Shown one piece after another: positions 7,366 to 63,590 of a stretch of DNA of 64,000 nt. How positions within the stretch are numbered: position 1 is the first letter of the stretch; every line of letters starts with the position of its first letter. The notes below the pieces were generated by a model. That model was given only the letters and a program-made list of their open reading frames with translations. It ran no database searches and was not told the origin of the DNA. This DNA is from a virus (lineage: Duplodnaviria; Caudoviricetes): positions 32,001-96,000 of IMG/VR virus record IMGVR_UViG_3300028591_000109; one strand, written 5' to 3'. Position numbers and translations under genes: made by a program.

Positions 7366-7398
7366 GCCCTTGACCTGCGCCGGACAGGGGATTAACTT
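7366..7398 (+). promoter_or_regulatory. phage-specific promoter motif copy 1
   Basis: GCCCTTGA-N19-TAACTT upstream of the HU-like gene. Confidence 0.6.
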
Positions 7399-7544
7399 TT
7401 GGGGTAGGCTCTCATTAAGGAGAGCCACCCATAAAAGTCCACTTTAGCGCGGGTAAAAGTCCACCCCCGCCTGAGACGACGGAAACAACGCCCCGCAGGG
7501 GCACATTATTAACATATTTATTCACAACAAAACAACAGAACATC

Positions 7545-8087
7545 ATGGCACAGAACAAGTACCAGATCATCGAGTTCAAGCCGACGGCCAACCAGGTCGG
7601 CATGTCGCACTCGTTCTACGCACAGGCCGTAGTAGACAACGTAATCACCAACAAGGAGCTGGCCAAGAAGATAGAGGCCCGTGGCATCAGCCGCGCCGCC
7701 GAAATCAAGGCCGTGCTCGAAGAGGCAGCCAACATCATCATCGAGGAGGTCAAGGAGAACAACCGCGTGCAGCTCGAAGCCGACGGCGGCGTGCTCGTCA
7801 GCATCTTCCCCACCGCCACCGGCAGCATCAGCGACAAGGACGTCGTGGCCAACCCCACGAAGTACCCCGGCAAGACCGTGGCCGAGGAGTCGATGCTCAC
7901 CGCCGACATGGTGAAGTGGAGCCTCGGAGCCCGCATCGGCTCCAACCTGGCCAAGCAGTTCGCCCAGCAGAAGTCCGCACAGAAGGTAGCCTACAGCGCC
8001 ACCTCGACACCCGCCGACCCTGAGAGTGGCAACAGCGACGGCGGCGGCTCAGACGAGGGCGGCGAATCGGGCGATCCCAATGAGTAA
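7545..8087 (+). CDS. Bacteroidetes HU-like DNA-binding protein
   Basis: FYAQAV....IT.KELAK.I....ISRAAEIKAVL......I.EEV.ENNRVQL; Gly/acidic tail. Confidence 0.75.
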   Translation: MAQNKYQIIEFKPTANQVGMSHSFYAQAVVDNVITNKELAKKIEARGISRAAEIKAVLEEAANIIIEEVKENNRVQLEADGGVLVSIFPTATGSISDKDVVANPTKYPGKTVAEESMLTADMVKWSLGARIGSNLAKQFAQQKSAQKVAYSATSTPADPESGNSDGGGSDEGGESGDPNE

Positions 8088-8196
8088 TCTCACGCGAAAG
8101 GCGGGCGGTGTGGGTTAGCGTGAGGCCCACGGATATCTTTCAGCCGTGCCAGCATCGTCCGCCGATTTTCTAAACAATTAAGAGCGATATAAACCT

Positions 8197-8502
8197 ATGC
8201 CGAAGCTGACTATCAACTACGCTTGCATTGCGGACGTGGTGCAGGTGGAACCTAAGCCGACGGACAATCAGCGGAAGAACCGCAAGGTCATCCTGCATGT
8301 TGACGAAGAGGATTTCTTCGACATGCTCGACCATGTGAACCCGAAGAACATCGTCAAGTATCTCGACATGCGGGGCATACCGCACCGCGAGCCGGCGAAC
8401 ATCGTGGTCAAGGTGGAGCCCGACGCAAGCGGACTGAAACTGCGCCATTCGCTGAAGCGGGTAGCAGCCGAACTAAAGAATGCGAGAAGAGACAACCAGT
8501 GA
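8197..8502 (+). CDS. hypothetical protein
   Basis: 101-aa ORF, GTGA overlap with the next gene. Confidence 0.7.
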   Translation: MPKLTINYACIADVVQVEPKPTDNQRKNRKVILHVDEEDFFDMLDHVNPKNIVKYLDMRGIPHREPANIVVKVEPDASGLKLRHSLKRVAAELKNARRDNQ

Positions 8503-9308
8503 TGAGAAACTACCGTGAACTATCCGACGAGGAGGTGCAGCAACTGGAGCAGCTCTACCCCGTGACCCCGAACCGCAGGCTCAGCCAGATGTTCGGCGTG
8601 TCGGTGGATGCCATCCAGGACCACTTCGCACGGCCACGGGGCTGGCAGAAAGACCAGGCATCCATCAAGCTCGCCACGCACGGCACCTACCACCGGCTGA
8701 CCGAGCGCGAGGAGCAGTGGATTATTCGCCACTACCACAACACCCGCAACGGCGACATCATGGAGAAGTACGGCATAGGCGAGAGCACGCTTCACCGCGT
8801 GGCACGGAAGCACGGGCTGAAGAAGACCGACCGCTTCATGCGCCGGATGCAGCGCGAGGCCGTGGCGCACTCGCAGGTGGCTTTCGCGGAGCACGGCGAG
8901 AGTGAAAGGGCTGCGGAGCGGGCACGTCAGCAGTGGGCAGAGCGCAAGGCCACGGGCGACTACGGAGGCGTGGGCTTCAAGAAAGGCGAGTCGAACAAGA
9001 CCCGCATGTCGCCCCGCCGCTACAAGGCGATGCTGCAGAAGATACAGCGGAAGCGCAACGAGACCATACGCCGCGACCGCATCCGCATCCACTGGGGCAT
9101 GGAGCCGAAAACGAAGCTGGTGAAGCAGTGGGACAACAAGCCCGACTGGCGCAAGAGCCACTACCGCTACAAGTTCCGACAGTTCGGCTACGAGGTGGAA
9201 CCCGACAGCCGCGACGTCTATTACTTCGCCGACACCGTGCGCCACCCCATCATGGAGCGCAACGCCCGGAAGCACGGCTTCAAGATACTTCCGGCAGAAG
9301 AAGAGTGA
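8499..9308 (+). CDS. basic protein with two HTH-like repeats
   Basis: LSDEEVQQLEQLYP..N..L...FGVS and LTEREEQWI..HY...N..I..KYGIG repeats. Confidence 0.7.
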   Translation: MMRNYRELSDEEVQQLEQLYPVTPNRRLSQMFGVSVDAIQDHFARPRGWQKDQASIKLATHGTYHRLTEREEQWIIRHYHNTRNGDIMEKYGIGESTLHRVARKHGLKKTDRFMRRMQREAVAHSQVAFAEHGESERAAERARQQWAERKATGDYGGVGFKKGESNKTRMSPRRYKAMLQKIQRKRNETIRRDRIRIHWGMEPKTKLVKQWDNKPDWRKSHYRYKFRQFGYEVEPDSRDVYYFADTVRHPIMERNARKHGFKILPAEEE

Positions 9309-9414
9309 AGACTCGCTTTAGCGCTTTCATCAAGCGAAGCGACTGAAAGAATTTTTAAACATAATTTTTAACCAATTTCTCGCCGACAGGCGACTAAAAA
9401 CAAGAGCGACAACA

Positions 9415-9594: not shown

Positions 9595-9616
9595 ACAACA
9601 AACAATCAAGAGCGAT

Positions 9617-10147: not shown

Positions 10148-10212
10148 ATAATTTTTAATCCAATTTTTAACAAATTTCTCGCCGCAAGGCGATACAAAAA
10201 ACAAAGAGCGAT

Positions 10213-10374: not shown

Positions 10375-10388
10375 AGGAGGACTGAGCC

Positions 10389-14400: not shown

Positions 14401-15357
14401 ATGATTGAACCCGACAACATTTACAACATGGACTGCCTCGAAGGGCTGCGGCAGATGGAGGACGAGACGGTGGACTGCTGCGTTACGTCGCCGCCCTACT
14501 TCGCCCTGCGCGACTACGGCTGCGAGGGGCAGATAGGACTGGAGCAGTCGCCGGAGGAGTACATCGCCCGGCTCTGCGACGTGTTCCGCGAGGTGCTGCG
14601 CGTGATGAAGCCCGAGGCGACGTGCTGGGTGGTCATCGGCGACACCTACAACTGTTACCGTGGTGCCACCACCCGCCAATATTACGACACGAAGTTCGCT
14701 GGAGAAAGCGGGCACCCTGCCCGTCCATCGGGCTTCGGGCTGGAATGCAAGAATCTGAAAGACAAAGACCTGATAGGCATACCATGGATGCTGGCCTTTG
14801 CCCTGCGCGGCATGGGCTTCTATCTGCGGCAGGACATCATCTGGCAGAAGCCGAACCCGATGCCGGAGAGCGTGAAGAACCGCTGTACCAAGTCGCACGA
14901 GTACATCTTCCTGCTTACCAAGCAGCCGCGCTACTACTTCAGCGTAGATGCGCTGCGCGAGCCTGCCAATACCGGCATCCGTGCCCACGAGTACAACCAC
15001 CGAAAGGTGAAATTTACCGTGCCAGGGCACCGCCAGATGCAGTTCCGTGGCGGCAATCAGAGCGACGGCTTCCGCAACAAGCGCGACGTGTGGCAGATAC
15101 TGGTCAAGCCCGGCTATGAGGGCCACCACGCCACCTTCCCCGTGGAGCTGCCCCTGCAGTGCATTGCCCTCGGCTGTCCGCAAGGCGGTCTGGTGCTCGA
15201 CCCTTTCATGGGCACGGCCACCACTGCCGTCGCCGCCTACCGCATCAGCCGCCACTATGTTGGCTTCGAGCTGTCACCCGACTATCACGCTATCTGTCTG
15301 GAGCGCCTGCGCCAGGAGCGACAGCAGCAGCGACTGGAGTTTGATGAGGAAGAATGA
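14401..15357 (+). CDS. beta-class amino-DNA methyltransferase (probably N4-cytosine)
   Basis: TSPPY catalytic motif precedes H.ATFP and DPFMGTAT SAM-binding motif. Confidence 0.92.
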   Translation: MIEPDNIYNMDCLEGLRQMEDETVDCCVTSPPYFALRDYGCEGQIGLEQSPEEYIARLCDVFREVLRVMKPEATCWVVIGDTYNCYRGATTRQYYDTKFAGESGHPARPSGFGLECKNLKDKDLIGIPWMLAFALRGMGFYLRQDIIWQKPNPMPESVKNRCTKSHEYIFLLTKQPRYYFSVDALREPANTGIRAHEYNHRKVKFTVPGHRQMQFRGGNQSDGFRNKRDVWQILVKPGYEGHHATFPVELPLQCIALGCPQGGLVLDPFMGTATTAVAAYRISRHYVGFELSPDYHAICLERLRQERQQQRLEFDEEE

Positions 15358-15432: not shown

Positions 15433-15873
15433 ATGGAAAATTGGATTTTAGTTAAAAACCTGGAAGGCAAAGATATAAAAGTTCGCCAGAGACGGGCTTA
15501 CGGTGACATCTTTGTTGACGAGCAAGGTAAGGAATACCTGGCGAATGTTCTTGACTTTACCGGCGCACGTCTTGCGATACCCGACTTCAACGAACAGAAT
15601 AAGGAGAGCCTGAATGCGCTGAAGGATATGATGAAGTCGATGGACGCCAAGGCTATTGCCGACCACAAGGCCGTGATTGCCGAGTTCGAGTATTGGAGAA
15701 AGCTGCGTAGTGAAATTTTCATGGAAATGTATCGCGACCACTTGGCCAAAAACGGCAGCAGAATGTCTGAGGACGATCTGCTGAACAAGGCGAAGTACCT
15801 TGTCAATCAGCTATGGCAACAAGACCAGGATTTCATATCTGACAAAAAGGTGTTTCATATTCCTGTCAAATGA
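15433..15873 (+). CDS. hypothetical protein
   Basis: 146-aa ORF, ATGA overlap with the next gene. Confidence 0.7.
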   Translation: MENWILVKNLEGKDIKVRQRRAYGDIFVDEQGKEYLANVLDFTGARLAIPDFNEQNKESLNALKDMMKSMDAKAIADHKAVIAEFEYWRKLRSEIFMEMYRDHLAKNGSRMSEDDLLNKAKYLVNQLWQQDQDFISDKKVFHIPVK

Positions 15874-17516
15874 ATAAAAAATTAACGCGCATGAAACAAA
15901 TAACTGCATTATACATCGACCTGTTCTGCGGGGCAGGCGGCACGTCGAGCGGCGTGGAGTATGCGCGGCTGGACGGGAGGAAGTGCGCCGAGGTGGTGGC
16001 GTGCGTCAACCACGACGCGAATGCCATCAAGTCGCACAAGGCAAACCATCCGCACACGCTCCACTTCACCGAGGACATCCGCACACTGGAGCTGTCGCCG
16101 ATGTTGAAGCATCTGGAGAAGAAGCGCCGGCAGTACCCCAAGGCAAAGGTGGTGCTGTGGGCGAGCCTTGAATGCACGAATTTCTCGAAGGCGAAGGGCG
16201 GACAGCCGCGCGATGCCGACAGCCGGACGCTGGCCGACCACCTGTTTCGCTACATCGAGGCGCTGCAGCCCGACTATATCCAGATTGAGAACGTGGAAGA
16301 GTTTATGTGCTGGGGTGCGCTCGACGAGAACGGCAAGCCCGTGAGCCGCGACCAGGGCAGCGACTACCTGCGGTGGGTGAGACAGGTGCAGGCCTACGGC
16401 TACGACTTCGACTGGCACGTGCTGAACGCTGCCGACTTCGGGGCCTACACAAGCCGTAAGCGCTTCTTCGGGCTGTTTGCTAAGAAGGGACTGCCGATAG
16501 CGTTCCCACATCAGACGTATGCCAAGCAGACCGTGGCTTTTGCGTCGCAGGCCGTCGGCAACCTCTTCCCCGACCAATACAAGCCGTGGCGGGCCGTGCG
16601 CGAGGTGCTCGACCTCGACGACGACGGCGAGAGCATCTTTGTGCGCCGCAAGCCGCTATGCGAGAAGACGCTGGAGCGCATCTATGCCGGACTGGTGAAG
16701 TTCGTGGCGGGAGGCAAGAAGCAGCACGAGGCGTGGATATTGAAGTACAACTCGATGAACCAGCAGAACCACCACAATGCGCCGTCCATCGACGAGCCGT
16801 GCCCCACGGTGGCTTGTCAGAACAGACTCGGACTGGTGAAGTGCCAGTTCCTCTCGAAGCAGTTCAGTGGCGACCCCGACAGCAAGAACATCGACATCGA
16901 GCAGCCCGCCGGCACCGTGACCACCATCGACCACCATGCCTTTGTGACGGCATACTATGGTAACGGATTCAACTCGTCGATTGACAGTCCGGCGCCCACC
17001 GTTACCACCAAGGACCGGATTTCGCTGGTAACGACAAAGTTCATGGATAACCAGTACGGCAAGAGTAAGCCGTCATCTATCGACGGGCCAGCGCCGACGC
17101 TTGTCAACAATCCCAAGCAGAAGATTGTGTCGGCGCAGTACCTGATGAACCCTCAGTACCAGAGCAACGGCGGCAGCATCGACAACCCTTGCTTCACGTT
17201 GATAGCGCGGATGGACAAGATGCCGCCTTATCTGATTACCACCAAGGAGGGTGCGGTGGTCATCGCCATCTATGAGAGCGACAGCCCGTGGACGCGCAAG
17301 GTGAAGGAGTTCATGGCCGCATACGGTATCGTTGACATCTGTATGCGTATGCTGAATATCGGCGAGCTGAAGCGCATCATGGGCTTCCCCACCGACTACG
17401 TGCTCATCGGCACCCAGGCCGAACAGAAGAAATACATCGGCAATGCCGTGGAGGTTAACATGAGCCGCGTGCTCTGCGAAGCCCTATGCAGGAAAATTAA
17501 GAATATGAACAAATAA
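15870..17516 (+). CDS. C5-cytosine DNA methyltransferase with repeated variable region
   Basis: DLFCGAGG (I), SLECTNFS (IV variant), IENV (VI), TSRKRFF (VIII), MGFP (IX), IGNAV (X). Confidence 0.92.
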   Translation: MNKKLTRMKQITALYIDLFCGAGGTSSGVEYARLDGRKCAEVVACVNHDANAIKSHKANHPHTLHFTEDIRTLELSPMLKHLEKKRRQYPKAKVVLWASLECTNFSKAKGGQPRDADSRTLADHLFRYIEALQPDYIQIENVEEFMCWGALDENGKPVSRDQGSDYLRWVRQVQAYGYDFDWHVLNAADFGAYTSRKRFFGLFAKKGLPIAFPHQTYAKQTVAFASQAVGNLFPDQYKPWRAVREVLDLDDDGESIFVRRKPLCEKTLERIYAGLVKFVAGGKKQHEAWILKYNSMNQQNHHNAPSIDEPCPTVACQNRLGLVKCQFLSKQFSGDPDSKNIDIEQPAGTVTTIDHHAFVTAYYGNGFNSSIDSPAPTVTTKDRISLVTTKFMDNQYGKSKPSSIDGPAPTLVNNPKQKIVSAQYLMNPQYQSNGGSIDNPCFTLIARMDKMPPYLITTKEGAVVIAIYESDSPWTRKVKEFMAAYGIVDICMRMLNIGELKRIMGFPTDYVLIGTQAEQKKYIGNAVEVNMSRVLCEALCRKIKNMNK

Positions 17517-22809: not shown

Positions 22810-23880
22810 ATGACACATGCATCAGTATTCAGCGGCATCGGCGGCCCGGAGGTGGCGGCAAGCATGCTCGGATGGGAGAACCTGTTCCACTGCGAGATCA
22901 ATCCCTTCGGTCGCGCCGTGCTCGACTACTGGTACCCTAACGCAGAATCGTATGAAGACATCACAAAGACAGACTTCACAGAGTGGCGCGGACGCATCGA
23001 CGTGCTCACAGGCGGATTCCCCTGCCAGCCGTTCAGTTTTGCCGGGAAGCGACGAGGCGCGGATGATGACCGCTACCTCTGGCCTTTCATGTTTAAGTGC
23101 ATCGACCAGATCAGACCCACTTGGGTCGTTGGTGAAAACGTTGCTGGCATCGTCACGATGGTCGAGCAGGGCCAGACTATTGACATGGCGGACGCGCCAA
23201 CTTTGTTCGACGAGGACGGTGCCGTTCACCGATACGAATACCGCAGCACCTTCACCCTCGAACGAATCTGCCGTGACCTCGAAACGCACGGATACGATGT
23301 CCAGCCGGTGCTTATTCCAGCTTGTGCCGTCGGAGCCCCTCACAGACGAGACCGAGTGTTCATCGTCGGACGTAGAATTTCTGCCGACACCGAAAGCGTC
23401 GGACAACTCGACGGGGATAGGCAAGAACGAAGTGCCATACTTGGACGGTCACATCTGGAGGCGACCCAACGGGGTGTCGATGCGACTGAGTTCTATGGCA
23501 AATCGGAATCTCCTGCCGACACCTCAGATGCAGGACTACAACACGGGCATCAGTCAGAAGGCGAAGGCTGCAAAACTGGAGCGATACAAGGACAGGGGCA
23601 TAATCCCTTCTGGGACGTATATGCTCAGGCAGATGGCTATCGAGGGGAAACTGCCGAAGCCGAATGGTCTGGTTGTGCCGGAAACGGACGGTGGCAACAC
23701 TTCCCGACTGTCTCCCCTGTTCACCGAGGAAATGATGGGCTTCCCTTTGATGTGGACTGCCTTACCATACCTTTCACCAAATGGCGCAACGAGGCCCTCA
23801 AAGCCTACGGCAACGCCATCGTCCCGCAAGTGATGTACGAGATATTCCGCGCTATCGAGCAAGTAGAAAACGAAAGATAA
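22810..23880 (+). CDS. C5-cytosine DNA methyltransferase, alpha chain (lacks motif IX)
   Basis: FSGIGG (I), GGFPCQPFS (IV), ENV (VI), HRRDRVF (VIII), YGNAIVPQV (X). Confidence 0.92.
   Translation: MTHASVFSGIGGPEVAASMLGWENLFHCEINPFGRAVLDYWYPNAESYEDITKTDFTEWRGRIDVLTGGFPCQPFSFAGKRRGADDDRYLWPFMFKCIDQIRPTWVVGENVAGIVTMVEQGQTIDMADAPTLFDEDGAVHRYEYRSTFTLERICRDLETHGYDVQPVLIPACAVGAPHRRDRVFIVGRRISADTESVGQLDGDRQERSAILGRSHLEATQRGVDATEFYGKSESPADTSDAGLQHGHQSEGEGCKTGAIQGQGHNPFWDVYAQADGYRGETAEAEWSGCAGNGRWQHFPTVSPVHRGNDGLPFDVDCLTIPFTKWRNEALKAYGNAIVPQVMYEIFRAIEQVENER
22952..23833 (+). CDS. overlapping +1-frame ORF: putative methyltransferase beta chain (motif IX/TRD); start uncertain
   Basis: Frame open 22817-23833; LPTPKASD and LLPTPQMQD repeats and RLSPLFTEEMMGFPLMWT. 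Confidence 0.7.
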   Translation: MKTSQRQTSQSGADASTCSQADSPASRSVLPGSDEARMMTATSGLSCLSASTRSDPLGSLVKTLLASSRWSSRARLLTWRTRQLCSTRTVPFTDTNTAAPSPSNESAVTSKRTDTMSSRCLFQLVPSEPLTDETECSSSDVEFLPTPKASDNSTGIGKNEVPYLDGHIWRRPNGVSMRLSSMANRNLLPTPQMQDYNTGISQKAKAAKLERYKDRGIIPSGTYMLRQMAIEGKLPKPNGLVVPETDGGNTSRLSPLFTEEMMGFPLMWTALPYLSPNGATRPSKPTATPSSRK

Positions 23881-24570: not shown

Positions 24571-25048
24571 ACACCAAGACCTCCAGCCCTGGCTCGATTA
24601 TTTCAAGATGTTGCAGCAGTACGAGGCCAAGGGCTTCCTACAAATGAACCCCAAGGAGCATGAGGCATACATCACCCGCGCCGCGCTGCTGACGCTAAAC
24701 CCCACCCCGGCCCTCCCCGAAGGAGAGGGGGATTCCGCTAACGGCAAAGCTCTTCACGACACTGTGACCCGCCTCCGTGCCTACGCCGCCTACCGCTGGG
24801 CCCCTACCGTCGGCCAGCAGCATCCCGTCGACATAAACGACCCCGATGCTGAGATACCCGTCATTCCCATCGAGGAACTGACCGCCTACTTCTCGCAGCC
24901 CTTCGCCATCCACATCGTCAAGGAAGACTACCCCCACGACCTGCTGCTCACGCTGCTGCTCCAGCAGAAGCGCTCATGGCGCACGGCATGGCGCACCGTT
25001 GACACCATCGAAGTTATCGACTACACAGAAATTGAAAAACAGACATGA
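24557..25048 (+). CDS. hypothetical protein
   Basis: 163-aa ORF; contains the palindrome-derived peptide NPTPALPEGEG. Confidence 0.7.
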   Translation: MSKNKHQDLQPWLDYFKMLQQYEAKGFLQMNPKEHEAYITRAALLTLNPTPALPEGEGDSANGKALHDTVTRLRAYAAYRWAPTVGQQHPVDINDPDAEIPVIPIEELTAYFSQPFAIHIVKEDYPHDLLLTLLLQQKRSWRTAWRTVDTIEVIDYTEIEKQT

Positions 25049-25857
25049 CAGCCGAACAAGAGAACTTACTACGCAGACATTACGCCGACACGCGGACAGA
25101 CCTGTTGGCAGAAGAACTGGGCGTGAGCTACCGTACCGTGTGCCGGTGGGCAGCCAGCCTTGGACTGAAGAAGCATGAGGACTTCCGGCAGGGCTTCAGT
25201 GCCATCAACGGCAGCATGGAGCGCAACTGGAGCCACCGCCCGAAAGGCGCAGGCGCAAAACTCTCGGCAGAGGTGACGGAATACCTGCGCCGACACTATG
25301 CCACGACCGACAACCGCGTGCTGGCCGCCCACTTCCAGGTGAACGACCGTACCATCCGCCGCTGGGCCGACAGGCTCGCGCTGCGCAAGGACAACGACTG
25401 GATAAATATGCACCGTGCAGTCAGACACGGCATGACGCCCGAACAGCGGTTCCAGCTGGTAGCCACCGTCCGCGAACTCTACCCAGACGGCTTGCACGAC
25501 GAGGAGCTTGTAAGGCGTACAGGCTATAGTTTCAGTTCTATTCAGGTGATTGCGGGAAAATATGGCATCCGCCGCTCAGAAGAGTGCATCCGTCGCCATC
25601 AGCAGAAAATAGGTGAAATCAGTAAACGACTGGCCGCTGAAGGAAAACTGAAACACGAAAAGACCCGCCAGCTGGAAGCCGTGGTGCAACGCGAGTATGC
25701 CACCGCCGATAACGATGAACTGGCACGTCGGCTTGGCATCAGCATCGGGTATGTAAAACAGATGGCCGGCCGGCTCGGACTGAAGAAAACCCGCGAGTAT
25801 CGCAGCGAACAGTTACGAAGACCAAGGAAAAATCGTAAATCACAAAAGAACAAATGA
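25045..25857 (+). CDS. protein of four tandem HTH-like repeats
   Basis: Four units of L.R.Y.....LA..LG.S...V...A..LGL.K. Confidence 0.75.
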   Translation: MTAEQENLLRRHYADTRTDLLAEELGVSYRTVCRWAASLGLKKHEDFRQGFSAINGSMERNWSHRPKGAGAKLSAEVTEYLRRHYATTDNRVLAAHFQVNDRTIRRWADRLALRKDNDWINMHRAVRHGMTPEQRFQLVATVRELYPDGLHDEELVRRTGYSFSSIQVIAGKYGIRRSEECIRRHQQKIGEISKRLAAEGKLKHEKTRQLEAVVQREYATADNDELARRLGISIGYVKQMAGRLGLKKTREYRSEQLRRPRKNRKSQKNK

Positions 25858-26330: not shown

Positions 26331-26408
26331 TGGCTGATGGAAGATGGAAGATGGAAGATGTGTGCGTCGGGGTCAGCCCTCATCCCTCAGCCCTCAGCCA
26401 TCCCTACT

Positions 26409-26441
26409 GCCCTTGAACTTCGTCGCCCAGCGACATATCTT
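26409..26441 (+). promoter_or_regulatory. phage-specific promoter motif copy 2
   Basis: GCCCTTGA-N19-TATCTT; ATG 6 nt downstream (likely leaderless). Confidence 0.7.
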
Positions 26442-26447
26442 GCCGGC

Positions 26448-27077
26448 ATGACACTGAAAGAGAAAATACAGAAATACTTCCGACGCAAGGCTGCCACCCA
26501 GACCCCTCGGCAGGAGGGGCAGGGGGTGGAGCCTGTTCCCCTCCGCATCGAGGGCGTGAAGCCAGCACCGCTCACACCCGAGCCCGACGACGCGGAGCTG
26601 GCGGCGCAGGCGCTGCTGGAGACGATGTGCGATGTAAGAAGTAAGAAGGAAGATGTAAGAGACGCTGCCGCCGACGCACATCAGCCATCATCCATCAGCC
26701 ATCAGCCATCGAAAAGCCATCAGCCATCAGTACGCGACGCTGCCTACTACCGGCGTCTGGCTGAGCGTATTCGTCTTGCACGGGACCAGGCGACATTGCG
26801 CACGATGCGCTTCGTAACATGGTGCGAGCAGGAGCTTGAGAAGCGTGACCTGCCCATAGAAGGCAAGGGCTCTCTGGCACAGATGGAAGCAGAACTCTAC
26901 AAGCGCATCGACACCATCGAGCGCGTAGGCGGCGAGCTAAAACACCGCTGGCAGCATTGCCTCGCAACCGTCATCGTCCGCCGCATGGAGGAAGAGAGGG
27001 AGGCGACGGAAGATGGAAGACGGAAGATGGAAGACGGAAGCGGCGAGGGCGGCGACCCGTCCGACCCCAATGAGTGA
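26448..27077 (+). CDS. hypothetical protein with three in-frame heptamer arrays
   Basis: Start reassigned to MTLKEKIQ right after the promoter motif. Confidence 0.65.
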   Translation: MTLKEKIQKYFRRKAATQTPRQEGQGVEPVPLRIEGVKPAPLTPEPDDAELAAQALLETMCDVRSKKEDVRDAAADAHQPSSISHQPSKSHQPSVRDAAYYRRLAERIRLARDQATLRTMRFVTWCEQELEKRDLPIEGKGSLAQMEAELYKRIDTIERVGGELKHRWQHCLATVIVRRMEEEREATEDGRRKMEDGSGEGGDPSDPNE

Positions 27078-27230: not shown

Positions 27231-27280
27231 CCATCACCCATCATCCATCTTCCATCTTCCATCAGCCATCATCCCCTCTC

Positions 27281-27313
27281 GCCCTTGATTTTGACGACAC
27301 ATAGCCCTATCTT
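27281..27313 (+). promoter_or_regulatory. phage-specific promoter motif copy 3
   Basis: GCCCTTGA-N19-TATCTT upstream of the tape-measure unit. Confidence 0.75.
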
Positions 27314-27331
27314 CCCCACAAAAAAACGACT

Positions 27332-27871
27332 ATGGCAGACAACAGACCAACGGCCCTGCAGCACGACCCATACGGCGAGAACATCGAACTGATGAAGTTC
27401 GACTGGCGCGACGAGCGCGTGATGAAGTGGATAGCCAAGTTCACGGAGTTCGGCGAACTCGACTCCAAGGGCAACATCCAGCGGCAGCGGGCCATACAGT
27501 CGGGCGCACTGCTGCGCTCCGTCAAGTGGCGCACGTGGAACGACTGCGGCGGCAACCGCCAGGTGTTCGAGGCCAAGTATCTCTACTACTCCAAGTTCGT
27601 CGAGCTGGCCCTCGGGCGCAGCATGCCGTTCATCGGCCTGCCTCCCGCCATCGCCGGGCGCAAGTGGCAGCCCATCCGCATGCCCGACGGTCGCCCGCGC
27701 CGTGCCAAGCCCTCGATACCCACCGAGATGCGCAAGCAGGCATCGAAGTTCATCACCATGCTCGAAGACCGCTACTCCTACCACGGACTGGCCCTCATGG
27801 TCTATGCCCTCGGGCCCTCGGTGCAGAACCGCAGGCTCATACAGCGCCTGCTCGACGAGGGCCGCGCCTGA
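27332..27871 (+). CDS. putative tail-completion/neck protein
   Basis: Basic 179-aa ORF with SGALLRSV and Y..FVE motifs directly before the tape measure gene. Confidence 0.5.
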   Translation: MADNRPTALQHDPYGENIELMKFDWRDERVMKWIAKFTEFGELDSKGNIQRQRAIQSGALLRSVKWRTWNDCGGNRQVFEAKYLYYSKFVELALGRSMPFIGLPPAIAGRKWQPIRMPDGRPRRAKPSIPTEMRKQASKFITMLEDRYSYHGLALMVYALGPSVQNRRLIQRLLDEGRA

Positions 27872-37153: not shown

Positions 37154-37402
37154 TCCATTGAACATTGAATATTGAACATTGAAAATTAACGGGTCGCTTC
37201 GCTTGGATAATTTGAAATCAATTTGAACAATTTCCCGCGAAGCGGCCTTCTCTTAATTTCTCGCGAAGCGATACTTGACAAGGATGGCCTGACGGCCAGT
37301 AATCGAGGTTCATCCTCGCTTCGCTCGTCGAAGAAATTAGAGACTACAGCCTGACGGCTGGAAATTTCTCAAATTAAATTCAAATTTACCATCTCTTGCA
37401 CT

Positions 37403-37435
37403 GCCCTTGATTTCCAAACCTTTTCGCACGATATT
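37403..37435 (+). promoter_or_regulatory. phage-specific promoter motif copy 4
   Basis: GCCCTTGA-N19-GATATT. Confidence 0.7.
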
Positions 37436-37455
37436 GCGGGAAAACAACGACGACT

Positions 37456-38766: not shown

Positions 38767-38952
38767 ATGACTACAGCACTCTTACTCTCCATCCATACAA
38801 ACGACATCGTGGGAGCAATCTTCACTGTCGTGTGGCTGCTGCTCTTAGTGATTGTGTCGCTCGTTGACTACGGCTTTAAGCACGGATGGTTCATACCGAG
38901 CGACGAAACTGTGGAAGAGTACAGGAAAAACTGTCGCAAAACTTGCCCTTGA
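38767..38952 (+). CDS. small membrane protein
   Basis: One hydrophobic helix; its stop codon lies inside promoter copy 5. Confidence 0.5.
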   Translation: MTTALLLSIHTNDIVGAIFTVVWLLLLVIVSLVDYGFKHGWFIPSDETVEEYRKNCRKTCP

Positions 38953-38977
38953 TTATCAGAGCGCTTGCCATTATAAT
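38945..38977 (+). promoter_or_regulatory. phage-specific promoter motif copy 5
   Basis: GCCCTTGA-N19-TATAAT. Confidence 0.8.
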
Positions 38978-39010
38978 GCAACACAGAAACAATTAACAAC
39001 ACAAACGATT

Positions 39011-40741
<1,731 letters not shown>

Positions 40742-40794
40742 CTCGCGCTGGATGGCTGCGATAATATCGCAGCATACGGAACAAGCGGCGGACT

Positions 40795-40827
40795 GCCCTT
40801 GACCGCGACGCGGTAGCGCATTATCAT
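40795..40827 (+). promoter_or_regulatory. phage-specific promoter motif copy 6
   Basis: GCCCTTGA-N19-TATCAT upstream of the capsid gene. Confidence 0.8.
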
Positions 40828-40887
40828 AACAACACAGAAACAGTAAACAATAGTAATAACCCCTCAATCAACACAAACACAAACATT

Positions 40888-42444: not shown

Positions 42445-43008
42445 ATGGCATTATCATGTATTCCCAAGAGCGTTCTCAGCAGCACCAGCTGCCAGGAGAA
42501 CCCTTCAGGCGTGAGCAACCACATGTTTGTCGTGCCTCTGGCTAATGTCGGTTCTATCGTGGCTGACGACGCGAAGAACCAGTACAATATCACTCTGCCC
42601 ACTAATCAGGATGCCCTGCAGGGCTACCGCATCGACTACAAGTCGCAGACGGGTCAGGTGACGAGTGAGGACAACGGTACCGGCAAGGGCTGGACCGGAT
42701 CGACCACTGGTCGTGTGGAGATGAGTGAGGACGACATGGCCTTCACCGCTCGCGTGCTGCACAACTCGGACAAGAACCTCTACTTCGTTGCCACTGGCAA
42801 CAAGAAGGCAGGCACAACCGAGGGCACGTTCCTCGACGAGTATATCGTCATCGGCAACGAGAATGGCGAGGCCGAGATTCAGGTGACCTTCGATTCGGGC
42901 ACGGCACGCACCGACGATCATGGACAGACCTTTACGGTTTCCTGCGGTTACATGAAATATCCTGTAACCAAGTGGTACGGTGTCATCAACCAGGCCGATG
43001 CCGCATAA
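42445..43008 (+). CDS. putative major tail (tube) protein
   Basis: CQENPSGV start, beta-rich 187 aa, SG....DDHG motif, highly biased codons. Confidence 0.6.
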   Translation: MALSCIPKSVLSSTSCQENPSGVSNHMFVVPLANVGSIVADDAKNQYNITLPTNQDALQGYRIDYKSQTGQVTSEDNGTGKGWTGSTTGRVEMSEDDMAFTARVLHNSDKNLYFVATGNKKAGTTEGTFLDEYIVIGNENGEAEIQVTFDSGTARTDDHGQTFTVSCGYMKYPVTKWYGVINQADAA

Positions 43009-43039
43009 GCGTCACTGCCTGATTCTCTCACATGCAATG

Positions 43040-43082
43040 CAAGGCTCTGGCTCCTGAACGTGAGCCGGAGCCTTGTCTTTTT
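43040..43082 (+). terminator. rho-independent terminator
   Basis: CAAGGCTCTGGCTC / GAGCCGGAGCCTTG stem plus T tract. Confidence 0.8.
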
Positions 43083-44322: not shown

Positions 44323-44336
44323 AGTTTTTTTGCGAC

Positions 44337-44369
44337 AATATCGCAAAACACTGGACGGAAATCAAGGGC
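44337..44369 (-). promoter_or_regulatory. phage-specific promoter motif copy 7
   Basis: GCCCTTGA-N19-GATATT on the minus strand. Confidence 0.7.
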
Positions 44370-44757
44370 AGACGGGACAGAGGATCGGCAGGATGCCGTC
44401 GTAGGCCACCTGACCGAGGTATCCCTGGAGGTAGGCTGCGTCTTCGGTACCGTGGGGTACGTCGTAGTACTGGAGGATAGCGTCCTGCAGGTGGTCGAAC
44501 TCGTGCAGAAGGGAGTTGAGGAACTGCGAGGGGTGAGTGACGTGACCGACAACAAGGACGGACATGCGTGCCCAGGGGACATTAAAAATGAATGCCTTGT
44601 TTGAGTAGTGAATGGTCTGCCAGGCTTTTTCTATCTCCTCCTCGGGACAGGAGAACTCACGGAGGATAGGGCCGAGCTGGACGAAGTCGGCCGGGATGAC
44701 GTCATAATAGGCAAGAATGCCCCAATGACGATCAATGTCTAAGTAATCGCGGGTCAT
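44362..44757 (-). CDS. HExxH-containing hypothetical protein
   Basis: LLHEFDH...E.AAYL.G pattern. Confidence 0.7.
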   Translation of the reverse strand: MTRDYLDIDRHWGILAYYDVIPADFVQLGPILREFSCPEEEIEKAWQTIHYSNKAFIFNVPWARMSVLVVGHVTHPSQFLNSLLHEFDHLQDAILQYYDVPHGTEDAAYLQGYLGQVAYDGILPILCPVCP

Positions 44758-47909: not shown

Positions 47910-47917
47910 CAAAGTTA
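47910..47917 (-). promoter_or_regulatory. host-type Bacteroidetes -7 promoter box
   Basis: TAACTTTG (TAnnTTTG) followed by a 5' hairpin, about 70 nt upstream of the Gly-rich gene. Confidence 0.6.
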
Positions 47918-54148: not shown

Positions 54149-54466
54149 TCAGAGGCCGAGAACAGCCTTCACGTCGTCGTCGGTGGCGAAGTGGTTCTCC
54201 ATTGCCTCGCGGGCCTCGGGCGAGAGGTCCTGCAGCCCGAGGGAGTCGTCTTCTACGGACTGGCTGTTGACTTTGCCGGTGGCTATCTTGCCGTCGGGCG
54301 TCACGATGTCAACGGTGACACCGCCGTCGGCGGGCATTTGAAGTGTGCGCTGGTGTACGCGGATGTGTCGGAGTACGTTCGTGCCGTCCTCCAGCGTCTC
54401 GTAATACAGGTGAAGCTGCTGTGCGATGACATGCTTCAGTTTCGTTAGGTCTGTTGTTGTTGCCAT
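54149..54466 (-). CDS. hypothetical protein
   Basis: First gene after promoter copy 8; C-terminus FATDDDVKAVLGL resembles that of 53484..54056. Confidence 0.65.
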   Translation of the reverse strand: MATTTDLTKLKHVIAQQLHLYYETLEDGTNVLRHIRVHQRTLQMPADGGVTVDIVTPDGKIATGKVNSQSVEDDSLGLQDLSPEAREAMENHFATDDDVKAVLGL

Positions 54467-54494
54467 GATGTCTGTCTTTTGTTATGTTGTCGGC

Positions 54495-54527
54495 AATATA
54501 ATGAGAGGCACGACAAGGGTCAAGGGC
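54495..54527 (-). promoter_or_regulatory. phage-specific promoter motif copy 8
   Basis: GCCCTTGA-N19-TATATT heading the DGR-target unit. Confidence 0.8.
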
Positions 54528-54564
54528 AGCGGGAAAAACCACGCAATCAGTGCAGCATGAAATC

Positions 54565-55719
54565 TCATGAAGTGCCCAACTTAACCCAGTAATAATTGCG
54601 ACCTTCCTTGTACGACATGAGTCTATAGCTGCCGCCGTTGTGTTCATAGTTCCCGTTAAGCGTAAGCTGGTCAGATATAGATATACTCTGTGCAAAGTTC
54701 CCCTTCATACATGACGCATTGTCACATTGTCGTACATATAGACTGCCGACATAAAGTTGAGAGGATGGCTGCGTATATCGGGTGTCGACGATTTCAACGA
54801 TTTTGCCCTCGTAGTCCTGTGCCCTCGGCAAAGTCACGGTTATGTCATCGGTGTCAGTCCCGGTAGCCTTGATGACAACAATATCTGCTGCGCCTGTACA
54901 CTTCACCATAGGTTCACCTATCCCAACATTTTCGCTGGATAGCTGGCGGGCTTCTTCTTCCGTATAGTAGCCTCCGTAGGTAAAGTTGCCTATCCAGGGT
55001 TCTTCGCTGTACTCATCCAAAAAGTCGTTGTTACAGAATCCGACGGTGTAACTGCCCGAGATAGCTACCGAATGAAAGAAGTTCGTCGCCCTTACCACTC
55101 CTCTGAACTCACCGCTTGTTGCATGAATCTCGCCCTTGACATACGCATCGTTCTGGTACGTCTTGCCCGTCAGTCCATCCACTGCGAAGTTCGGAGCGAA
55201 CTTATACCCCGACTGAGGATTCGTGCTGACCGTCGGGTCGGACGGGTCGAACCATGCGTAGGGAATTTTTCCGCCGTACTGCAGGCTGACATTGTCGGCG
55301 TTGACGGTAATTCTCGTGCCGCTGCTGTCGACGAGCGTGCCATACTGTGAAATCATCCAGTCGCCGTTGATGATGAACGAGCCGAAGTGGGCATAGGGGC
55401 CGAAGAAGGCCTGGGCGATGTAGTACTGCATGGTGGACTGCATGAGCGTCCACGGCTTCGTGCCCTGCCCGCTCACGGGGTTGTAATTCGTGGCGGGGTC
55501 TTCGTTTTTGCTTTCACCTGTCTCGACGCCCTTAGTGCCGAAGTCGAGCATATAGAAACTGTCGCCGCGCTTTACGAAGGGTGCCTGCGTCTCCTGCATG
55601 GTGTATGTTGCGTCAGACGCCCATTCGTCAGCATAGTAATACCAGCGACCTACGTGGCCTGCTTTGCCGTCCTTCACCGCAGAGATTGTAAACGATGCGC
55701 TACTGACTCTTTTCTCCAT
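54565..55719 (-). CDS. tail fibre/tip-like protein
   Basis: A.FGSFIINGDWMISQYG, FAPNFAVDGLTG, VKGEIHATSGEF beta-repeat motifs; lower-GC C-terminus. Confidence 0.65.
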   Translation of the reverse strand: MEKRVSSASFTISAVKDGKAGHVGRWYYYADEWASDATYTMQETQAPFVKRGDSFYMLDFGTKGVETGESKNEDPATNYNPVSGQGTKPWTLMQSTMQYYIAQAFFGPYAHFGSFIINGDWMISQYGTLVDSSGTRITVNADNVSLQYGGKIPYAWFDPSDPTVSTNPQSGYKFAPNFAVDGLTGKTYQNDAYVKGEIHATSGEFRGVVRATNFFHSVAISGSYTVGFCNNDFLDEYSEEPWIGNFTYGGYYTEEEARQLSSENVGIGEPMVKCTGAADIVVIKATGTDTDDITVTLPRAQDYEGKIVEIVDTRYTQPSSQLYVGSLYVRQCDNASCMKGNFAQSISISDQLTLNGNYEHNGGSYRLMSYKEGRNYYWVKLGTS

Positions 55720-59936: not shown

Positions 59937-59965
59937 TGATTGTTATATCGCCTTTTGTTTCGCAC

Positions 59966-59998
59966 ATTATATATATAATGCGGATGAAGGTCAAGGGC
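59966..59998 (-). promoter_or_regulatory. phage-specific promoter motif copy 9
   Basis: GCCCTTGA-N19-TATAAT. Confidence 0.8.
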
Positions 59999-60015
59999 AG
60001 GATTTCTATTCCGAG

Positions 60016-60090
60016 CCACAGAATTTTTATTATAGCCCACAGAAATTTCAAAGAAGCCCACAGAATTTTAATTTCAGCCCACAGAATTTT
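60016..60090. repeat. four direct repeats, 21-bp period
   Basis: CCACAGAA at 60016, 60037, 60058, 60079. Confidence 0.85.
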
Positions 60091-60104
60091 CGTTCCGCCT
60101 GCCT

Positions 60105-60137
60105 GCCCTTGATTCGCGCTCGCGTAATATATATAAT
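60105..60137 (+). promoter_or_regulatory. phage-specific promoter motif copy 10
   Basis: GCCCTTGA-N19-TATAAT. Confidence 0.8.
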
Positions 60138-60167
60138 GTGTGCAAAACTAAGGCGATATAAAAAATC

Positions 60168-63056
60168 ATGGAACATCTTGCACTTGAGGTTTTCGACCTC
60201 GCTACTAAGGAGAACCCGAACCCTACCGGCAGCCAGTATGCCGTGCTGGAGCCGGACGCAACCATCACCATCACCGACACGTCGGAGATTTTTGCTGACG
60301 GCGATGTGTGGTCCTACGACTTTACGCTGAACGTCCGCGCCAACGCGCACCTGTTCGCCACGGCTGGCGACATTCACGGCTCACGGTTGCACGAGCAGAT
60401 CAATAAGCGGAAGGCCCGCCTGTGGGTGGAGGGCGTGCCGCTCTACTTAGGCTACCTGAAGCTCGGCGATGAAGCGGAGGTGGATGCGGAGGGCAACGTG
60501 GACGTCAGCTTCGAGAGCGGACAGAAAACGTTTGAGGAGTTGATAGAGGGAGCCAAGGCCAACCAGGTGCCGATGATAGGAAATGTCAAGATTGGCGTGG
60601 CACTCTGGCAGAAACGCCAAGTCTCTTACAATTTAAAACTCAGAGCGTCTGCTATTTTTGAGAATAAAAAAGAATCAAAGGATGGGGAGATAAAAGAAAC
60701 CCTTAACGATTCTAACCTAATCACGTTTACAAGCGATGACGAACAGAACCCCGTCCAACAATACCCCAGGATGGTGTTTCCTGTGGGCACTTTCAAAGAT
60801 TGGAGCGACTATAAGGACACTACCTACGATGTTAATGAACTCAACACTGACAGCCCTTATACCGAAAACGAAAATGGTGTACCGACGCATCCGTTCTGTA
60901 ATGTAGCATTATGTTATCAGCGGCAGGGTTATGAAAAGAAAAACGAAAGAGACGAACTGATACCAGACTACACCAGCGAGCCGGAGGCGCAGCGAGGCTA
61001 CGAATACATGCCCGCTAAACGTGTGAACTCCGCGCCAAACTTCTTTGTGCTCTACTGGTTCCGTGCATTGATGAACCATCTTGGCATCTATATCGAAGAG
61101 AACCAAATGCTTGATGTAGAGGATTTGCGCAGACTATTCTTCGTGAACACCAATTGTGCGTACAAGGTGCCGAAAAGAAAATTCTACACGGGTGATGACA
61201 TCAGCTGGTACCAATTCCTTCCAAGTACTGGCAGATTGGTGCCTGAATACTACAACATCGAGAAGAATTTTAATAAAGAAGAAAGTGCATTTAAGAGCGT
61301 GGAAGACGGGTTTACCGTAAGCACACCGATAATAGATCCATCCACAGCCGCCTCACTTATCCCGCAGTCAATAATACCGACCATCGACCGCATTGCCGTT
61401 AAGGTAAGCGAAGTCAGCAAAAGCAACGAAGATGCACAGAAACACGTATATGAGAACAACAACCGCTGGCTCCATGATGCCTATGCCACGAGCGACTGTT
61501 TCCCGAATGTAGACATCTCGGAAGTCATCAATGCCATAGAGAGCGGATTCGGTGTGCGTCTGCTATTCAGCAACGACTATAAGCGGGTAAGGATTGTGCT
61601 GCTGCGCAATGTATTCCGGAACGAGGATGTACAGGACATAACGTGCGAGATTGTGGACGAGGATGTTAAGGTGGAGAATAATATCCGTGGCTTCCGCATG
61701 ACCTACGGCAATACGGAGGACACCCATTTCTACTACAAGGGCTTTGCCGACATGTTGCCGCACAAGAAAGAACTGTGGGCAGACACAAGCGACGAGCATG
61801 ACTATTCGCACTGGGATTTGAATGCCATCTATGCCAACATCATACACAAGGTGTCGGCCTTCGACAAGACCTGCTATGTGACACCCAACACAGGCAATGC
61901 CTATGGTATTAAGATTGACAAGGACGCCAAGCGTTATGACGAGCTACATCCATCGCTTTTCGGGTACGGTGAGTTTATGGATGCCGAAGACGGCGACTGT
62001 ACTGGCGAAGACGAGACCATCAAGACTGTCAACATGGGCTTCACCCCCGCCATTATGAACGACCTGAACATGGAGGAAGAACGCGAAAACGGCTCACGCG
62101 AACAGCGGTTTGCTCTATTTGTCGGCGAGACGATGCGTCCTCGTCGGCCTGAACTGATAGAAGGCACTGATTACAATGACCCTGAAACAGTATATCCTAT
62201 GGATGGAGAATATGGGCTATACGGTGACAAGTCGAAGGCAAAGGATATGAAGTCAGACGGCATCGTAAAGCCTGGCGAGTTCGCAGTGAGGTCGGATATG
62301 TATGCCAGTGCGAGCGGTCTTAAAACCACAGTTCGCTATCTCCTCAAATACGTTGACATGTCTTTTTTCGACGGACCAGACTCCGTACCCGTGTATGCGC
62401 AATGGGATATTACTAACCTGAATATCGACGGTCATATCAACGAGGGCTACCGCCTGTATCTGCAGGACAACTACGAACCTAACGACGACGGCATCTCGCC
62501 TATCGAGACGCACGACTGGGGCTTGACGCTGGGCATCATGCGCGGCAGCGGCAGCGACGCCTACGTAAACTACACGGCCGATCCTGACGACGGCGAGGGC
62601 AACGACACATGGGACATCATGGCCGGCAGCAGCGTGACGGCACACCCGGACACCTGCGACTCGTATGGCAACGAGTGGGACTACAACGGAGACGCTGAAG
62701 GGATAGGCGACCCCGACGGCAGGGTCAGCCTGAAGCTCCGGGCAGAAAAGCCTAACCCTTATTACAACCCGCATCTGCCGGAGAGCGACAGCAACCGCCG
62801 TTATCTGCAGATTTCCAATAAGAACCTGCGGCAGCGCGGCCTCGCTGACCAGTTCTACAAGGAGTACAGCTTCTGGGTGCGCAATGCCCGCATCGTGAAA
62901 CGGACGGTACGCATGACGCTGGCACAGCTGCTGACCATCGACAAGACAAAACGTGTCAACGTAGGTGACGTGACGGGATTCATCAGGAAGATGCAGTATT
63001 CGGTGAGTAACGAGACGGGGCTTGGCAATGTAACGATGGAGATAATGTATATATGA
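60168..63056 (+). CDS. large tail (tip/baseplate-hub-like) protein
   Basis: 962 aa; N-terminal WSYDFTL...N..LF pattern; heads a late-promoter unit. Confidence 0.65.
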   Translation: MEHLALEVFDLATKENPNPTGSQYAVLEPDATITITDTSEIFADGDVWSYDFTLNVRANAHLFATAGDIHGSRLHEQINKRKARLWVEGVPLYLGYLKLGDEAEVDAEGNVDVSFESGQKTFEELIEGAKANQVPMIGNVKIGVALWQKRQVSYNLKLRASAIFENKKESKDGEIKETLNDSNLITFTSDDEQNPVQQYPRMVFPVGTFKDWSDYKDTTYDVNELNTDSPYTENENGVPTHPFCNVALCYQRQGYEKKNERDELIPDYTSEPEAQRGYEYMPAKRVNSAPNFFVLYWFRALMNHLGIYIEENQMLDVEDLRRLFFVNTNCAYKVPKRKFYTGDDISWYQFLPSTGRLVPEYYNIEKNFNKEESAFKSVEDGFTVSTPIIDPSTAASLIPQSIIPTIDRIAVKVSEVSKSNEDAQKHVYENNNRWLHDAYATSDCFPNVDISEVINAIESGFGVRLLFSNDYKRVRIVLLRNVFRNEDVQDITCEIVDEDVKVENNIRGFRMTYGNTEDTHFYYKGFADMLPHKKELWADTSDEHDYSHWDLNAIYANIIHKVSAFDKTCYVTPNTGNAYGIKIDKDAKRYDELHPSLFGYGEFMDAEDGDCTGEDETIKTVNMGFTPAIMNDLNMEEERENGSREQRFALFVGETMRPRRPELIEGTDYNDPETVYPMDGEYGLYGDKSKAKDMKSDGIVKPGEFAVRSDMYASASGLKTTVRYLLKYVDMSFFDGPDSVPVYAQWDITNLNIDGHINEGYRLYLQDNYEPNDDGISPIETHDWGLTLGIMRGSGSDAYVNYTADPDDGEGNDTWDIMAGSSVTAHPDTCDSYGNEWDYNGDAEGIGDPDGRVSLKLRAEKPNPYYNPHLPESDSNRRYLQISNKNLRQRGLADQFYKEYSFWVRNARIVKRTVRMTLAQLLTIDKTKRVNVGDVTGFIRKMQYSVSNETGLGNVTMEIMYI

Positions 63057-63087
63057 TGCTAATTGTCGTATGACAGTACAAAAAAAA

Positions 63088-63474
63088 CTACTTCTTTCTG
63101 ACAAATCTATCGCCAAAAATCCAAAACGTGTCGTTGTCAGGATTATAACTTCCGTTTATTTCGTCACGCCACACATTGCCATAACTATTGACGTAAACAA
63201 TGCGTAAATAAACAGTACTACCATATAAGTTGTACGTAAAGGAACCACCTACGTCGCCACCGGAATCGTACATGCCCGTACCATCAGAATTAAACGAGTA
63301 AGACCGTTTGTCACAAACCCATGTGCCAAGGATTTTTTTCTCGTACCAATTTTCGTAGTTATTACCACCATCGCCATCGTCATCTTTGTTACAGGCGGTG
63401 AAACCAAGTGTGAATACACATGCAAGCGCCAGCACTGCTATGCGGCTTACGGAAAGGAATGTTTTTGTTTTCAT
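63088..63474 (-). CDS. surface lipoprotein (moron)
   Basis: Signal peptide II FTAC followed by NKDDD; ILGTW lipocalin-like motif; low GC. Confidence 0.8.
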   Translation of the reverse strand: MKTKTFLSVSRIAVLALACVFTLGFTACNKDDDGDGGNNYENWYEKKILGTWVCDKRSYSFNSDGTGMYDSGGDVGGSFTYNLYGSTVYLRIVYVNSYGNVWRDEINGSYNPDNDTFWIFGDRFVRKK

Positions 63475-63501
63475 TGTTTGTTCGTTGTAGCATTTCGTTT
63501 G

Positions 63502-63533
63502 CAAATGTACGGAAAAACGAGTGAATTGCCAAA
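63502..63533 (-). promoter_or_regulatory. canonical Bacteroidetes primary-sigma promoter
   Basis: TTTG-N20-TACATTTG upstream of the lipoprotein gene. Confidence 0.75.
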
Positions 63534-63557
63534 TGATCGTCGGAATAAATGTCGCTC

Positions 63558-63590
63558 GCCCTTGATTATGGGCGGCAATGCGGCTATCTT
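63558..63590 (+). promoter_or_regulatory. phage-specific promoter motif copy 11
   Basis: GCCCTTGA-N19-TATCTT. Confidence 0.75.

Follow-up and report, generated by a model that had tools for sequence, protein, structure and literature searches.

How phages of the Bacteroidota time their late genes is a matter about which, to our knowledge, almost nothing is known, and the hosts themselves have an unusual primary sigma factor and promoter. The question is raised here by a repeated, promoter-like motif in a 64,000-nucleotide stretch of DNA, bases 32001-96000 of the 141,567-bp virus record IMGVR_UViG_3300028591_000109 in IMG/VR (56% GC). We call that whole stretch the window and use its coordinates unless they are marked as genome coordinates; labels prefixed L or G denote individual records or genomes. 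In the motif, an invariant word, GCCCTTGA, is followed after exactly 19 variable nucleotides by a hexamer resembling TATAAT. The motif is rigidly spaced, oriented toward genes, conserved among related phages, and confined to phage DNA. We favor, with modest confidence, the answer that its copies are private late promoters, at which host RNA polymerase carrying its own sigma factor would use half of a host -7 box and a phage protein bound to the -41 to -30 segment would recruit it.

Whether the motif could have arisen by chance is readily answered. The word GCCCTTGA occurs 12 times in the window (shuffle mean, 2.3; shuffle maximum, 6), and the spaced pattern GCCCTTGA-N19-KAWMWT occurs 11 times there and never in 100 shuffles. 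Exact copies number 13 in the whole 141,567-bp record, where a reversed control pattern has no match, and by these two comparisons a chance origin of the spaced motif is excluded. An earlier note on this DNA had listed eleven spaced copies, and all of their coordinates, strands, and hexamers were reproduced exactly; the hexamers are TAACTT, TATCTT (three times), GATATT (twice), TATAAT (three times), TATCAT, and TATATT. The two exact copies beyond the window are at genome 22428+ and 96769+. When all 13 exact copies were combined into a weight matrix, it retrieved about five weaker intergenic ones:

Genome 3838-, 5494-, 13321+, 131587-, and 133322-: degenerate intergenic copies, found by weight matrix.

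No spaced copy lies antisense or in the middle of a gene. The twelfth GCCCTTGA, at 55132+, has no hexamer, falls within the minus-strand open reading frame (ORF) 54565-55719 (a rough, ATG-only gene call), and looks like a chance copy.

How far the motif extends was read from this genome pooled with five related genomes, fetched in full, which together hold 75 GCCCTTGA words. A KANNWT hexamer stands exactly 19 nucleotides from the word in 58 of the 75, and every other spacing accounts for 0 to 3 each; counted in the manner of sigma70 promoters, exactly 17 bp separate the two hexamers in the 58 copies. The logo was built on 56 distinct sites, and its T-12, A-11, and T-7 are partly imposed by the search pattern. 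Three further features are not so imposed: a T immediately 5' of the word (position 0) in 53 of 56 sites, itself preceded by a pyrimidine; two pyrimidines (YY) directly 3' of GCCCTTGA; and an A 7 nucleotides past the hexamer (52 of 58), after which the sequence is rich in A. With Y-T upstream, YY after the word, and A past the hexamer, the motif is wider than first described. The spacer (motif positions 11 to 27) shows no conservation, and late-class spacers in the six phages are 51% GC. The conserved A is the predicted +1. Counting from it puts the hexamer at -12 to -7 and TTGAYY at -35 to -30; YTGCCC falls at -41 to -36, and the invariant YTGCCCTTGAYY spans -41 to -30.

Where the copies point is equally regular. 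The earlier note had each copy directed into the gene that follows, and indeed each of the 58 pooled sites faces an ORF 60 or more codons long; leaders are predicted to have a median length of 22 nucleotides and are A-rich, with no Shine-Dalgarno sequence. The start site is independently supported by the gene at 26448-27077, the ATG of which falls exactly on the predicted +1, both here and in relatives L093 and L103. The mRNA of this gene is predicted to be leaderless, and its ortholog has the motif upstream in four other genomes. Perhaps the copies are not promoters at all and instead serve as recombination, packaging, or insulator sites. We give that idea next to no probability: the orientation to genes is strict, a -10-like box stands at a fixed distance in every copy, an ORF begins shortly after every copy, and an A is conserved at +1 in most.

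What kind of sigma factor could read the motif was approached by comparison with the host promoter. The primary sigma factor of the Bacteroidota (sigma-ABfr) reads a -33 element, TTTG, and a -7 element, TAnnTTTG (TAHHTTTG), in which T-12, A-11, T-8, T-7, T-6, and G-5 are nearly invariant and G is virtually absent at -10 and -9 (PMC6847099). The phage motif shares that frame (CTTG, 20 nucleotides, TAHHTT, with TTG at -35 to -33). Moreover, G is absent from -10 and -9 in 58 of 58 copies, although the search left both positions free, and a host-like T-8 is found in 50 of 56. The motif nevertheless departs from the host promoter in several respects. Of the 58 copies, 6 have T-6, 17 have G-5, and 3 have the full TAnnTTTG; an invariant C stands in for the first T of TTTG; an invariant TGCC is added upstream of (C)TTG and an A after it; and one fixed spacing replaces the range of 19 to 21. 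Furthermore, the spacers, at the GC content given above, contrast with the AT-rich (35% GC) spacers of the phages' own canonical promoters, and the binned host chromosomes make no use of the motif. We conclude that four features are private to the phage: the invariant TGCC that precedes (C)TTG, the A that follows, the restriction to one spacing, and a -7 box reduced to half.

The earlier note had described the geometry as sigma70-like. The arrangement of TTGAnn, 17 bp, and a hexamer is correct but is not specific to sigma70, as CTTG-N20-TAnnTT is also the host -33/-7 frame. Likeness to the Escherichia coli sigma70 promoter, TTGACA-17-TATAAT, consists of TTGA(C/T)(C/T), the 17-bp spacer, and TAnnnT, and several copies score 10 to 11 of 12 in a sigma70 consensus scan, the consensus being of the E. 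coli type whereas the binned hosts use the Bacteroidota type. The GCCC extension has no counterpart in E. coli, however, and position 5 of the phage hexamer is a host-like T rather than A. Moreover, the Bacteroidota sigma factor has been reported not to use E. coli-type sigma70 promoters (PMC6847099). The hexamer, which has T at -8 and no G at either -10 or -9, is of the host type, not of the E. coli type.

The six phages also carry 39 canonical promoters (TTTG-N19-21-TAnnTTTG; spacers, 35% GC), which bears out the proposal that the motif forms a separate, phage-private class beside them. The canonical promoters serve replication, partition, and immunity genes; on this phage they lie near the DnaC-like and ParA genes, and one box in the window illustrates the contrasting class:

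47910..47917, minus strand: host-type -7 box (TAACTTTG) before the highly conserved block 47837-45776.

Perhaps no phage factor is needed. The copies could be strong promoters for the host primary sigma factor, with GCCC/A as an optimal extended -33 context, and could work at every stage of infection, or be shut off solely by a prophage repressor acting elsewhere. Geometrically, the copies are identical to the host -33/-7 frame: TTG occupies -35 to -33, and TAHHTT occupies -12 to -7. No activator was found. We consider this quite unlikely, however, as T-6 and G-5, nearly invariant in Bacteroidota (PMC6847099), are missing in most copies and the spacer is not AT-rich. Moreover, the word is invariant over genomes up to 60% different in protein and is unused by host chromosomes, and the same phages use ordinary TTTG/TAnnTTTG promoters for their replication, partition, and immunity genes.

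How widely the motif is conserved was followed through relatives of increasing distance. The regulon is conserved among genomes whose proteins are 40-95% identical, with differing spacers, and ten IMG/VR contigs with a 46-65% identical protease gene carry the motif at orthologous sites, again with different spacers. In 21 contigs with a 43-99% identical capsid-position gene, the exact motif lies upstream in 13 and one-base variants in 2; the remaining 6 leave no gap between that gene and the preceding one and thus have no promoter there. A lineage with a changed word was sought among these 21 wider relatives, and the variants found, TCCCTTGA and GCCCTTGC, were all minor. When IMG/VR was scanned with a 14-base pattern, the matches were mostly chance single ones plus the rumen relatives, and no second lineage using the motif appeared. 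We found no related phage in GenBank and, in the literature searched, no paper that mentions the motif.

Whether the motif also belongs to the host was addressed in four rumen metagenome-assembled genomes (MAGs), labeled Prevotellaceae, Bacteroidaceae, or Bacteroidales, that hold a relative of the phage, in three cases on one contig of 114-126 kb. In three of the MAGs, some 8 to 10 copies of the motif sit on the single phage contig, and in the fourth they are spread over several phage-like contigs; in the remaining ~3 Mb of the MAGs, the motif is at or near the level of the reversed control. The canonical TTTG-N19-21-TAnnTTTG promoter, by comparison, occurs 300 to 360 times in the three MAGs tested against 13 to 30 in controls, an enrichment of 10- to 20-fold, and these MAGs are ordinary Bacteroidota in promoter usage. 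Alternatively, the reader might be a host alternative sigma factor (one of some 20 extracytoplasmic function [ECF] sigmas) or a host regulator, induced in infection or stress. MAG G006 indeed has 22 sigma-70-family genes, none of them on the phage contig, and a small ECF regulon might escape genome-wide enrichment. The off-phage matches in the four MAGs, however, scarcely exceed the control level, if at all, and most of their hexamers are poor; moreover, the usual ECF -35/-10 words are not known to resemble the phage motif. We therefore regard a host alternative sigma or regulator as very unlikely.

Which genes the copies serve bears directly on whether the class is late. The eleven copies in the window are as follows:

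7364..7405, plus strand: the weakest copy (CC-GCCCTTGA-CC ... TAACTT), with a position weight matrix score of 22.8 against 26-30 for the others; it is followed by an HU-like gene (7545-8087), a small ORF, and a gene for a protein with two helix-turn-helix (HTH) modules (8502-9308).
26407..26448, plus strand: predicted promoter, by motif match, of the conserved gene 26448-27077.
27279..27320, plus strand: predicted promoter of an operon of a 179-amino-acid ORF (27332-27871) and the tape measure gene (27926-37153).
37401..37442, plus strand: predicted promoter of a conserved gene for a 426-amino-acid protein (37456-38736) in a virion-gene position.
38943..38984, plus strand: predicted promoter of a head maturation protease/scaffold-like gene (39011-40741).
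40793..40834, plus strand: predicted promoter of a unit comprising the capsid-position gene (40888-42297) and the gene that follows it (42445-43008), which ends at a hairpin terminator (43039-43076).
44330..44371, minus strand: predicted promoter of a conserved leftward unit (44322-43819 and 43849-43106); motif in three genomes.
54488..54529, minus strand: predicted promoter of a leftward unit starting at 54466; motif kept in the closest relative.
59959..60000, minus strand: predicted promoter of a leftward five-gene block (59936-54565).
60103..60144, plus strand: predicted promoter of a conserved gene for a 962-amino-acid protein (60168-63056).
63556..63597, plus strand: predicted promoter of a conserved gene for a protein of ~350 amino acids that starts at 63611 and runs beyond the window end.

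Two of these units are identified by homology. The tape measure protein (3,075 amino acids) matches phrog_28 (E = 9e-24), and the protease gene matches phrog_53 (E = 2e-23) and has the motif before its ortholog in 5 of the 5 genomes that have the gene. The motif also precedes the orthologs of the 426-amino-acid, capsid-position, and 962-amino-acid genes in 6 of 6 genomes each, and that of a 610-amino-acid gene in the portal position, beside a terminase-like gene (Walker A sequence, AGRGTGKT), in 5 of 6. The tape measure operon and tail genes likewise retain it in relatives. The genes of the five-gene block encode 460, 445, 83, 406, and 384 amino acids and occupy a tail fiber-like position. Degenerate copies outside the window head two more units, one beginning with a spanin-like lipoprotein gene, recognized by reading its sequence, and the other including an endolysin and a terminase-like gene. 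The 426-amino-acid protein has no family match, PHROGs and Pfam gave none for most virion-region genes, and profiles of the capsid-, terminase-, and portal-position genes had no match in the PDB. The capsid role is assigned by gene order alone because the AlphaFold2 (AF2) model of that protein failed (predicted local distance difference test [pLDDT] score, 44). The earlier note counted nine copies before virion-gene units; homology supports this for the tape measure and head protease units, and the others are so placed by position only. A virion regulon thus holds for two units, and we infer it for the rest because most of the products have no family match.

Several of these loci have features of their own. 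At the weakest copy, CC replaces CT upstream and the predicted +1 is T, not A. The HU-like gene behind it has no ortholog in the five related genomes, and the 140-nucleotide leader between them (7405-7545) folds as three hairpins (z = -5.3 against shuffles) and has no Rfam match. An acidic, glycine-rich tail, ...GG(x)DP(S/x)(D)PNE, is shared by the products of 26448-27077, 7545-8087, and L009:3184-3699(-), proteins that are otherwise different; two are HU-like and one is the product of the leaderless late gene (26448-27077). The tail may be a targeting or processing signal. The leader of the capsid-position gene (40834-40887) is conserved (...attcacc...aacacaaacac..attATG) and is kept in relatives (L189-L209; 43-99% protein identity) even where no promoter lies upstream. 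Between the converging capsid-position and leftward units, at 43039-43076, a hairpin with a 15-bp stem and a T-run forms a terminator, the only clear intrinsic one in 38 kb; other terminator-like matches are at chance level. Finally, two copies stand back to back about 100 bp apart at 59959-60144, both with the run TATATATATAAT; as a predicted pair of divergent late promoters, they would serve the five-gene leftward block on one side and the 962-amino-acid gene on the other.

How the phage would control this class can be proposed in outline. Because the private word TGCCC is lacking in the host chromosome and heads tail, head, and lysis blocks, a phage protein probably switches these genes on late. 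The host polymerase with its own sigma factor would read the half -7 box, inefficiently when alone, and a phage-encoded protein would recognize TGCCCTTGA at the -35 position and recruit the polymerase. That protein might be a class II-type activator or an appropriator of sigma region 4, as in T4 middle promoters. One such promoter per virion or lysis block would leave the blocks free to scatter on both strands, as in coliphage P1. We infer promoter activity, late timing, and the existence of a factor from sequence.

A number of results weigh against recruitment by a phage protein at private late promoters. The earlier note had suggested searching the rest of the contig for a sigma/ECF or activator gene, but no reader protein was recognizable either in the window or in the rest of the 141-kb genome. 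Six-frame searches at E <= 1 found no match to Sigma70_r2 (PF04542) or to the MotA activation domain (PF09114), and the Mor/C family (PF08765) likewise had no match at E <= 1. P1 Lpa, searched by phmmer and tblastn against the six genomes, gave nothing better than E = 1.4. The model TIGR02937 matched a gene for a 201-amino-acid protein (genome 129094-129699) at 15 bits, but that gene is in 2 of 6 genomes and the match has no Pfam support, and when five conserved small families were compared with host (G006) sigmas by hhalign, the probability was <= 1%. Residues 142-202 of the first candidate, a 202-amino-acid protein considered below, resemble Myb, winged-helix, and similar DNA-binding domains weakly (Z <= 5.5 by VIA-align). 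Moreover, most motif-headed genes have no recognizable function, the link to the host runs through the binning of a phage contig into MAGs and is indirect, and start sites and timing are themselves predictions made from the bases.

Perhaps, instead, a diverged phage sigma factor takes the place of the host sigma and recognizes the hexamer as well as TTGAYY (plus TGCCC). The 17 bp between the hexamers are held with zero tolerance, as is typical of alternative sigmas, both halves of the motif are conserved, the promoter is private to the phage, and many conserved phage proteins have no family match. The failure to find region 2 in six frames, the sole and narrowly distributed TIGR02937 match, and the hhalign result all speak against such a protein, however, and a new sigma factor would have no need of a hexamer that follows host rules (TAHHTT, T-8). 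We consider a phage sigma factor unlikely.

Which phage protein might be the recruiter was narrowed by conservation. A tandem-repeat protein was an obvious candidate:

25045..25857, plus strand: 270-amino-acid protein of four tandem HTH modules, matching phrog_323 ("D5-like" regulator; 3e-13).

One of its modules gave the only match, a weak one, to Sigma70_r4 (PF08281). Both this protein and the two-module protein at 8502-9308 were rejected as readers because the module, by hidden Markov model, is found only in this genome and G004, whereas the motif is found in all six. The module itself is about 45 amino acids long, with a consensus of roughly L..E....L...Y......ELA..LG.S..TV.R.A..LGLKK.

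The remaining candidate is the 202-amino-acid protein encoded outside the window at genome 6769-7377 (L009, plus strand), which is conserved in all six genomes and has a host-type promoter upstream. It is the only conserved protein lacking an assigned function that combines a host-type promoter with a DNA-binding-like part. Its AF2 model has a pLDDT of 89, and the three C-terminal helices (142-202) end in an invariant AIRREWQRRxKR. Foldseek found no match to the protein in the PDB, its N-terminal alpha/beta domain has no match in the PDB or BFVD, and the best BFVD match of the whole is an uncharacterized Polaribacter phage protein (E = 0.36). In the protein atlas it falls in hypothetical viral clusters only, a narrow family of 38 clusters at 50% identity, distant members of which lie on short contigs that are uninformative about the motif. 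As a reader, the modeled protein is a lead rather than a finding. Tentatively, and as a possibility we hold to be somewhat doubtful, the reader could be a new kind of specificity factor, outside the sigma-70, MotA, Lpa, Mor/C, and Ogr families, that retargets the Bacteroidota RNA polymerase to a sigma70-shaped promoter with TGCCC; factor and promoter would then form an orthogonal pair, and the gene at genome 6769-7377 would be the first candidate.

How the phage compares with better-known systems may clarify what is new. In T4 middle promoters, a MotA box at -30 is combined with a host -10 element, and MotA and AsiA appropriate the host sigma factor. There, as here, a phage-specific word of 9 to 12 bp replaces the -35 element at a nearly fixed distance from a host-type -10, but the likeness is one of form only: the word is different, this phage has no MotA homolog, the T4 class is middle rather than late, and the host sigma here is of the Bacteroidota type. 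Coliphage P1 has eleven late promoters activated by Lpa with host SspA, and the P1 late element is a 9-bp inverted repeat centered at -22 and adjoining the -10 (PMC10695390, PMC3152322; NC_005856). Like P1, the present phage has a large genome of the phage-plasmid type with about a dozen copies scattered on the two strands, each serving a single morphogenetic or lysis unit, and it too has ParA and a DarB-like protein. Unlike P1, it does not conserve the spacer and carries its word at -41 to -30, and no Lpa homolog was found in the six genomes. In genome logic, P1 is the closest system. A phage late promoter with a private upstream element is a known kind, and this word and spacing are a variant of it.

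What sort of phage carries the motif is suggested by other genes. A 1,696-amino-acid DarB-like antirestriction protein (phrog_10089, E = 4e-251) is encoded at L012:5390-10480(-) and a ParA-like partition protein at L009:11704-12543(-), and the tyrosine integrase family PF00589 has no match in the genome; together these point to a P1-like phage-plasmid lifestyle in rumen Bacteroidales. The phage and its relatives form a family of phages of ~115-145 kb, probably phage-plasmids, of rumen Bacteroidales. We note that all six related genomes encode a conserved Tad2-like (anti-Thoeris) protein, here at 6677-7132 (PF11195, E = 4e-20). DNA methyltransferases are encoded at 14401-15357, 15870-17516, and 22810-23880; one is of the N6/N4 type and two are of the C5 type, and all three share one rightward gene block with radical-SAM and HNH genes.

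Why the motif matters extends beyond a single genome. For a family of large, uncultured rumen phages, putative phage-plasmids, it marks out the putative late regulon and predicts start sites with single-base precision. The motif is a handle that makes late control in Bacteroidota phages directly testable, and it is also a bait for the missing factor. Should that factor prove new, it and its promoter would make a useful orthogonal switch of expression in the engineering of Prevotella and Bacteroides. Alternatively, promoters that proved active without any factor would change the view of what the Bacteroidota sigma factor can read.

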